Positions 13,666-14,809 of a stretch of 30,059 bases of DNA are shown here, piece by piece. Source of the DNA: Candidatus Thorarchaeota archaeon (lineage in GTDB: Archaea; Asgardarchaeota; Thorarchaeia; Thorarchaeales; Thorarchaeaceae); the NCBI GenBank assembly GCA_048882045.1, contig JBHLRZ010000034.1, positions 1 through 30,059 of the forward strand, read 5' to 3'. Numbering within the stretch: the stretch's first letter is position 1; each line of letters starts with the position of its first letter. A program made the position numbers and the translations under genes. A model generated the notes under the pieces. That model made no database searches. It had not been told where the DNA came from and saw only the letters and a program-made list of their open reading frames with translations.

Positions 13666-14190
13666 TCAAGATGCAGTTTGTGATATTTGCATACTGACAC
13701 CATATGTGCCTGTGCTCTCAAAGGTGAGACCCACATAGATCATTCCAGATGTTGCCAATCCTCCCCCACCAAAGTCGAAAGTGCCTGTGGAGACTGATTC
13801 ACTGATTATGAATCTATAACCCTCATTAATTGGTTCCGCGCCGCCTAACCAAGATCCGGTCATATCACCACCCGCATCATTCACGACGTGTACGGTTATG
13901 CTGCCTACCTGCGCTAGACTCATGCCAGTTTCAGTAATCTCAATTACTATGTATCCAACTGCCATGACTGGATCATTCAATGTGTAAGTAAAAGTACTGA
14001 CCATTTCCAGATGTACATAGTGGACACTCTCAAATGAACCGCTAATTTCCATTGGTGGGTTGGTGACTAACACGTTGTTTGACACCAGATTGGAAATAAA
14101 GAAAAGTGCACCAGCGGCTGTTCCGATTAGAACTACGAGAAGCATCCATAATGGTACGGTCTTGATTACTTTCTTCTTCAAGAAACTCAT
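13666..14190 (-). CDS. Secreted or surface beta-rich hypothetical protein
   Basis: KKK + hydrophobic stretch + AAGA signal-peptide-like N-terminus; beta-strand-rich mature part; GAGGGAG upstream. Confidence 0.7.
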   Translation of the reverse strand: MSFLKKKVIKTVPLWMLLVVLIGTAAGALFFISNLVSNNVLVTNPPMEISGSFESVHYVHLEMVSTFTYTLNDPVMAVGYIVIEITETGMSLAQVGSITVHVVNDAGGDMTGSWLGGAEPINEGYRFIISESVSTGTFDFGGGGLATSGMIYVGLTFESTGTYGVSMQISQTAS

Positions 14191-14402
14191 TTTTTCTCCC
14201 TCTCTAAGAGAAGTTTAGCTCTTAACTAGGCGATTATAATCATATAAAACTACCAACAAATTCCAAAATGACTATTTACGGATAGGATTTCTTTGCTGGG
14301 CATAGTAGAGTAAGTAGTATGATGTGTGTTTCCTGTACTCTAAGTCGACATAGACTAGTAACATATTGTGACTCCCTTCTGTGACCCTGACAAGTGGCTC
14401 CG

Positions 14403-14414
14403 CTATATATACTA
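14403..14414 (+). promoter_or_regulatory. Putative TATA box of the microprotein operon
   Basis: CTATATATACTA lies about 30-40 nt upstream of ATG 14444. Confidence 0.5.
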
Positions 14415-14443
14415 AATCTGAGCAGTAATTCTTGTGAAACATC

Positions 14444-14545
14444 ATGGCTCTAAGTAAGAACTCACGAAACACAACTGTGCTGAAGAACGAGAAGACCAAG
14501 GTTTCGACCTTTGCCTTGACTCATGCTTACGTCTATCGGAGGTAA
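14444..14545 (+). CDS. Microprotein 1 (33 aa): MALSKNSRNTTVLKNEKTKVSTFALTHAYVYRR
   Basis: ATG...TAA downstream of a TATA box; its last codons form the GGAGGT SD of the next ORF. Confidence 0.55.
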   Translation: MALSKNSRNTTVLKNEKTKVSTFALTHAYVYRR

Positions 14546-14549
14546 TCCA

Positions 14550-14663
14550 ATGGCATTTGCTAAACTTCGGAGAAAACTCAGTGCTGAACCTGACCTTGAG
14601 AAACACCTGTATCTTAAGACCCAAGTACGTACTGACGTCTACAGGACATCTTTCCAGAGGTGA
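14550..14663 (+). CDS. Microprotein 2 (37 aa): MAFAKLRRKLSAEPDLEKHLYLKTQVRTDVYRTSFQR
   Basis: GGAGGT SD (14538-14543) 6 nt upstream of the ATG; ends in GAGGTGA, the SD of the next ORF. Confidence 0.65.
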   Translation: MAFAKLRRKLSAEPDLEKHLYLKTQVRTDVYRTSFQR

Positions 14664-14669
14664 ACTCAG

Positions 14670-14783
14670 ATGAACAAGTCTGACTCCGCCGCAAAGACTA
14701 CCTCCTCTAAGGTACAGAATTTCCAATCCCAGAAGGGTAGCGCCCTTACTCTGGCAGAAGTACTCGCGTTAGAAGCAACGTGA
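14670..14783 (+). CDS. Microprotein 3 (37 aa): MNKSDSAAKTTSSKVQNFQSQKGSALTLAEVLALEAT
   Basis: GAGGTGA SD (14657-14663) 6 nt upstream of the ATG; followed by a hairpin and T-tract. Confidence 0.6.
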   Translation: MNKSDSAAKTTSSKVQNFQSQKGSALTLAEVLALEAT

Positions 14784-14800
14784 GTACTGCTCTCCTTTTT
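14759..14800 (+). terminator. 12-bp hairpin plus T-tract closing the microprotein operon
   Basis: AGTACTCGCGTT-AGAAGC-AACGTGAGTACT (one G.U pair), then CTCCTTTTT. Confidence 0.6.
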
Positions 14801-14809
14801 CACCCACAT

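Follow-up and report, generated by a model that had tools for sequence, protein, structure and literature searches.

Multi-peptide leaderless bacteriocins such as aureocin A70, garvicin KS, and the cereucins are encoded as three or four tandem cationic peptides of 30-35 aa per operon (PMC6131525). In archaea, the M. mazei protein sP36 is a small protein that regulates a transporter (PMC10714827). In bacteria, translation can arrest at a stop codon, as described for TnaC and PepNL (PMC11890864), and translational coupling, which requires very short intergenic distances, is enriched among genes for complex subunits (PMC10666635). For Asgard archaea we found no paper on regulons and small proteins, a field that is almost undescribed, and a literature search of limited coverage returned no description of the microprotein families reported here. 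These families are represented by a cassette in the 30,059-nt stretch of Candidatus Thorarchaeota DNA that we refer to as the window.

The original prediction described an unannotated operon with a TATA box, three back-to-back ORFs, a 12-bp hairpin, and a T-tract, and each of these features is present where it was placed (Table 1). The gaps of 4 nt (ORF1-ORF2) and 6 nt (ORF2-ORF3) are likewise as described, and the first two peptides are basic (net charges +6 and +5; ORF3, +1). Shine-Dalgarno (SD) motifs do precede the ATGs of ORF2 and ORF3 by 6 nt, although the statement that they are built from the last codon and stop of the preceding ORF does not hold for ORF2, whose SD draws on the last two codons and the stop. 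Two features go beyond the original prediction, namely operator boxes at 14357-14399 and the position of the ORF3 stop within the hairpin's 3' arm. The SD assignments assume the general anti-SD; the 16S 3' end was not found in the assembly. Dinucleotide shuffling of the intergenic region (3000 rounds) never produced three chained ORFs of 25-50 codons with SDs, and did so once when no SD was required. The cassette lies between a divergent gene for a 174-aa membrane-anchored protein and a convergent DUF362 gene, with polX one gene further upstream. Relatives have polX directly upstream of the cassette, with no 174-aa gene between, and in several genomes a tRNA-like gene, seen by eye, follows the polX-locus cassette on the opposite strand (L003, L009, L013, L016, L248). 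The three ORF sequences of the window are absent from a collection of 15 billion proteins, that is, they are unannotated.

Table 1. The window cassette, its promoter and the adjacent divergent gene, in window coordinates
Feature	Position	Strand	Remarks
Gene for 174-aa membrane-anchored protein	13666-14190	-	resembles PKD weakly; an insertion between polX and cassette
Operator palindrome GTAAC-N5-GTGAC	14357-14373	+	family consensus GTCAC-N5-GTGAC, from 70 cassette promoters
Two more boxes (TGTGAC, GTGGCT)	14380-14399	+	13-bp spacing; last abuts TATA box; putative activator sites
TATA box TATATATA	14404-14411	+	32-nt spacing to first ATG, fixed between loci
Putative 5' leader, ~10 nt	14434-14443	+	start placed from usual archaeal TATA spacing; GTGA mini-SD, 6 nt 5' of ORF1, conserved between loci
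ORF1, family A microprotein, 33 aa, basic	14444-14545	+	
SD of ORF2, GGAGGT	14538-14543	+	made of ORF1 Arg-Arg-stop codons; ends 6 nt before ATG
ORF2, family B microprotein, 37 aa, basic	14550-14663	+	
SD of ORF3, GAGGTGA	14657-14663	+	made of ORF2 final codons and stop; 6 nt to ATG
ORF3, family C microprotein, 37 aa	14670-14783	+	N-terminal part near-neutral, polar
12-bp RNA hairpin	14759-14788	+	12 pairs; covers final 8 codons and stop of ORF3; covarying
Pyrimidine tract, putative terminator	14790-14801	+	contains T5 (14796-14800)

The three ORFs are very probably real genes. Profile searches found family A in 80 of the 85 other genomes of the host's taxonomic family, with 1-14 matches each, and in none of 314 other Asgard genomes; family C (ORF3-like) occurs in 62 and family B (ORF2-like) in 37 of the same 85, and the relatives are named Thorarchaeota. 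No internal stop was present in the 150 family A matches listed, though the search reads through stops. Pairwise dN/dS was 0.35 for ORF1 types, 0.14 for B, 0.25 for second-slot A peptides, and 0.35 over the last 15 codons of C, as compared with 0.9-1.5 in shifted sense frames, these being descriptive values from non-independent comparisons among kin. The first 24 codons of family C gave 0.82, near neutral yet in frame. About half of all differences fall at third codon positions, indels are whole codons, and an SD is present at 129 of 132 closely coupled starts. Spacers as well as frames and SDs are preserved between loci, and the termini of A and B and the C-terminus of C are under purifying selection. 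A DNA search with the hairpin, whose pattern partly contains the stop but not the start, returned 59 true matches, 55 of them with the stop in register and an SD-led in-frame start 22-50 codons upstream. The proposal of a dedicated, translated peptide cassette is supported by the evidence it called for, namely conserved frames, SDs, synteny, and synonymous bias.

No significant matches to A, B, or C were found in Pfam, NCBIfam, PHROG, PDB sequences, or Rfam, in agreement with the earlier failure to recognize a family. A search of 1.84 billion protein representatives yielded 38 proteins, and all those inspected were family members. Apparent A+C fusions of 70-72 aa proved, where checked, to be gene calls in which TAG was read as Gln. 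A read-through fusion at pyrrolysine was rejected: PylS exceeded the TIGR02367 cut-off in 0 of 86 genomes, and of 51 junctions preceding C, 17 lack the shared frame that such a fusion would need. Where the stop is TAG, the following ORF shares its frame at 33 of 41 junctions, as against about a quarter for TAA and TGA, an excess that may reflect shared ancestry. An antisense ORF of 94 aa (14442-14726) was also discarded, the antisense frames being stopped in 24-25 of 25 ORF1 homologs. No viral contigs were found with the tight alignment.

The operon is not a single locus but belongs to a multicopy system spread across the genome. We distinguished 134 cassettes, with the layouts A-A-C (47), B alone (29), A-A (26), and A (15), followed by A-A-A (7), A-C (5), A-B-C (3, in three genomes), and A-A-A-C (2). 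The window cassette and those of two congeners carry B in place of the usual A at slot 2, which indicates that slots are exchangeable. Its own genome holds A genes at five other places as well as two stand-alone B genes. The window copy is the polX-locus copy, and polX lies directly upstream of the cassette at 18 other loci in several genera. At this locus the promoter and first ORF are 77-99% identical to another locus of the same genome, as against 67-73% to the polX locus of other genera, and the own-genome copy was the closer one in 5 of 6 genera tested, which points to concerted evolution. Neither terminal repeats nor a transposase was found at the cassettes, and the insertion sites are ancient and fixed. 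Several cassettes sit at contig ends (L091, L098, L121, L126, L054), as expected for near-identical repeats, and copy numbers counted in these metagenome-assembled genomes are probably underestimates.

In most cassettes the last ORF is followed by a terminator belonging to the cassette and then by a convergent gene, which argues that the peptides are themselves the product. A DHA3/MFS_3 exporter gene stands directly downstream of 14 cassettes (in layouts including A-A-MFS), often coupled to the array as if it were one more peptide, and in 9 of the 14 only 5 nt separate its start from the preceding stop; the window cassette has no exporter, its next gene being the convergent DUF362 gene. Some GNAT and MFS genes stand behind a single A peptide. 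Recurring neighbors include polX, MFS, desulfoferrodoxin, PadR-like, and methyltransferase genes.

Family A peptides are 22-37 aa long, with a mean charge of +5.4, and consist of an N-terminal MAL[AT][KT], a basic linker of free length, and a C-terminal S-T-x-A-[IL]-x-[YHR]-A-Y..R-R. In 159 cores the T and A are invariant and the S, Y, and R nearly so. The terminal Arg-Arg is retained, with non-SD codons, in uncoupled family A copies, so that the arginines evidently matter to the peptide itself. Profiles of A and B have their N-terminal segment in common (E 9e-5), and similarity is confined to it; the suggested duplication of ORF1 and ORF2 is thus upheld for the N-terminal MA[LF]AK only, while the V of the VYR motif near both C-termini is not conserved in family A. 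Family C, which by sequence is unrelated to A and B, is neutral to acidic and ends in a conserved L[TS]xxEVLALEAT. Mean GRAVY is -0.66 for A, -0.99 for B, and -0.64 for C, the best 15-residue hydropathy is about 0 for A and B, and no TM-like segment was found in the peptides. No double-glycine leader was detected, Gly-Gly occurring in 1 of 186 family A peptides. AlphaFold predicts ORF1 as a single helix (pLDDT 70; 81 at residues 21-30), a low-information model. A scan of the host's proteins for a comparable motif gave nothing above shuffled background. An HbYX proteasome-activator tail fits copies ending in LYR but not the majority, which end in YRR or FRR, and readings as a PIP-box, a split HTH, or BRC-type mimicry were not supported.

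The 3' hairpin is doubly constrained, by RNA pairing and by codons. Across homologs, 90.4% of cells are paired, with 37 double changes (0 of 500 shuffles; slid controls 19-48%). The ORF3 stop codon lies within the 3' arm, as it does in 58 of 59 homologs, and the changes in loop and stem are synonymous, including covariation of a Leu codon with the stop codon. The conserved L[TS] residues of family C fall outside the stem. A T-tract follows the hairpin in nearly all homologs, and the whole unit folds as RNA at z -2.5.

The consensus promoter consists of a GTCAC-N5-GTGAC palindrome followed by boxes spaced 13 bp apart up to the TATA box. Its proximal part was recovered in 35 of 36 genomes of the family and 17 of 19 of a second Asgard family (f12), as against 0-1 in the reversed control. 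The host genome has eight such sites, three of them at peptide cassettes; the other five precede genes for an MFS_1 transporter, a GNAT of 1106 aa, a beta-helical protein with a bactofilin domain, a 10-TM protein, and a 2-TM protein of 159 aa. No gene of the regulon passes the cut-off for a curated function. Other genomes show the same set of targets, and there are GNAT, MFS_1, and bactofilin genes that have the promoter while lacking peptides. In the second family the promoter precedes the orthologous bactofilin-domain gene and also drives a multicopy basic peptide of 29-30 aa ending in WFACR[NRH] (L314:1375-1464 (-); L293-L319), which has its own hairpin and T-tract behind it, sometimes with a zinc-finger GNAT gene next, and whose profile showed no detected similarity to those of the three cassette families. 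A GNAT is part of the regulon in both families.

Further observations concern individual regulon members and promoters. The 10-TM protein (365 aa; L152:1302-2396 (-)) has internal repeats, an acidic N-terminus, and about 130 homologs, nearly all from Thorarchaeota and belonging to no family. The long bactofilin-domain (PF04519) protein (L153:1692-3011), with the same promoter in two Asgard families, has homologs also in Bathyarchaeia. Not every cassette or stand-alone B gene has this promoter; some have different ones and lie next to PadR-like or tandem Lrp-like regulators. A tandem Lrp/AsnC-type regulator is often the divergent neighbor of a stand-alone B gene (7 loci; L160:936-2015 (-)), and a PadR-like regulator is that of cassettes with a second type of promoter (8 loci; L161:1448-2239 (-)). 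An inner element of repeated GGTCAC boxes, TCTCAGAAACAGCATAT, and GTGACC is conserved within GNAT and MFS leaders as well as between A peptides (L021:1360-1461 (-), L156:3921-4022 (-), L023:1635-1736). It overlaps an ORF of about 40 codons ending in AYxVTNL in several loci and may represent inverted operator boxes or an RNA hairpin.

We tentatively propose, with a probability of roughly 40%, that the cassette is a self-contained inducible operon whose soluble microproteins of families A, B, and C act through their C-terminal helix as dosage-amplified intracellular stress effectors. A predicted transcription factor would bind the GTGAC boxes and activate the regulon in response to envelope stress or toxic compounds, a trigger suggested by the kind of genes that are co-regulated. 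An mRNA of about 365 nt would be translated by termination-reinitiation, for which the intergenic distances fit the published requirement (PMC10666635), giving roughly equal amounts of the peptides, and several near-identical loci would supply a high dose quickly. The short C-terminal aromatic helix of A and B, ending in Arg-Arg, may dock on an abundant intracellular partner, such as a protein machine, the ribosome or RNA, or a regulon member (transporter or regulator), and the variable, basic linker would strengthen the contact. Family C would act through its acidic-hydrophobic C-terminal helix and would, in addition, link translation with 3' hairpin stability. A broader version, which we regard as doubtful, holds that the operator regulon, present in at least two Asgard families, is a hitherto undescribed kind of archaeal stress response in which homogenized arrays of interchangeable microproteins bind and switch a core machine (the ribosome, the proteasome, or a bactofilin-like cytoskeleton or envelope) and the last peptide senses translation, controlling the end of its own mRNA. 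The peptides can be synthesized and the operator is short enough for a DNA pull-down, so that partner, regulator, and trigger can be tested without culturing.

It is rather unlikely that the peptides are instead exported unmodified, as antagonistic or signalling cationic peptides like the leaderless bacteriocins, with the MFS protein as exporter and GNAT and membrane proteins for self-protection. Tandem cationic paralogs of 30-37 aa without a leader would suit such a role, as would the exporter directly downstream in 14 cassettes and the GNAT of the two-family regulon. However, GRAVY values are -0.64 to -0.99, as against aureocin A70 and garvicin KS at +0.40 to +0.71, an ABC exporter or immunity gene is absent among the conserved neighbors, copies are homogenized and under purifying selection rather than diversified, and the window cassette lacks an exporter altogether.

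Unlikely as a general account is that the peptides are cis-acting nascent-peptide sensors, in which a pause at the C-terminal motif and stop would gate re-initiation at the overlapping SD of a downstream MFS or GNAT gene, and a pause on ORF3 would melt the hairpin and so set mRNA termination or decay. This idea is most plausible for family C, where the N-terminal part is near-neutral and the stop lies in the 3' arm of the hairpin in 58 of 59 homologs, and it is compatible with the stress-effector proposal. Also in its favor are the strong conservation of the 12-14 residues that precede the stop, peptide lengths on the scale of the ribosomal tunnel, and the single A peptide ahead of some GNAT and MFS genes. 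Yet a co-oriented downstream gene is absent at most cassettes, including that of the window and most A-A-C cassettes (it is present in the 14 MFS-linked and a few GNAT-linked ones), 29 B genes are solitary and have a terminator to themselves, the N-terminal MA[LF]AK is conserved despite variable length, and some GNAT, MFS_1, and bactofilin genes have the promoter without peptides.

We consider it improbable that the peptides are RiPP precursors, their Tyr/His-rich C-terminal core being cross-linked or modified in some other way by enzymes encoded elsewhere before MFS export. Multicopy short ORFs, YxY/HxY-type patterns, an exporter, and one copy facing a radical SAM gene (L162) recall such systems, but that sole radical SAM neighbor is convergent and not conserved, and conservation of both ends around a variable middle is unlike a leader/core design. 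No radical SAM, P450, YcaO, LanM, or peptidase gene recurs among the neighbors of the 134 cassettes or in the regulon, which are the genes that the search covered. Gene context lends no support to the suggestion of precursors modified in trans. A non-coding origin, with ORFs that are incidental to a repeat or a structured RNA, might be suggested by multicopy, homogenized units with a conserved hairpin and a folding z of -2.5, but it is scarcely credible in view of the position-3 bias, dN/dS of 0.14-0.35, whole-codon indels, SDs at nearly all coupled starts, synonymous stem and loop changes, the lack of an Rfam match, and ancient, fixed insertion sites without terminal repeats or transposase.

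The cassettes have features in common with several described systems; their organization is that of multi-peptide leaderless bacteriocin operons, while their way of working may be that of archaeal regulatory small proteins. With leaderless bacteriocins they share short, related, tandem cationic peptides that lack a leader (A and B) and a transporter near some copies; they differ in being hydrophilic (GRAVY -0.6 to -1.0, as against +0.4 to +0.7), chromosomal, homogenized, present at up to about seven loci, without an adjacent ABC exporter or immunity gene, and without sequence similarity. Type I toxin-antitoxin toxins are single hydrophobic TM helices, whereas the cassette peptides have no TM-like segment. 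By the features tested, the cassettes do not qualify as bacteriocins, RiPPs, or type I toxins, and no named family fits. In operator design, the Thermococcales TrmB/Tgr TGM operator, TATCAC-N5-GTGATA, is similar in being a palindrome of N5 geometry near the TATA box, but here the half-site is GTCAC/GTGAC, extra boxes follow at 13-bp spacing, and other genes are targeted. TnaC and PepNL resemble the cassettes in having conserved C-terminal residues at a stop that forms part of an RNA structure or of the SD that follows; the cassettes, however, are arrays of paralogs, mostly without a regulated downstream gene. Like sP36, the peptides are unannotated, soluble, co-regulated with a transporter, and plausibly bind a larger partner, but sP36 is a single 61-aa gene, to which family searches turned up no similarity, while the cassettes draw on three families, combined in modular, translationally chained arrays, and a single genome can have as many as 14 matches. 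A regulated small-protein operon is, as a kind, already known. What is new are three microprotein families that rank among the most repeated genes of Thorarchaeota and were missed by standard annotation, a defined operator with its target genes in two Asgard families, and a dual-coded hairpin and multi-locus homogenization that are each unusual in themselves.
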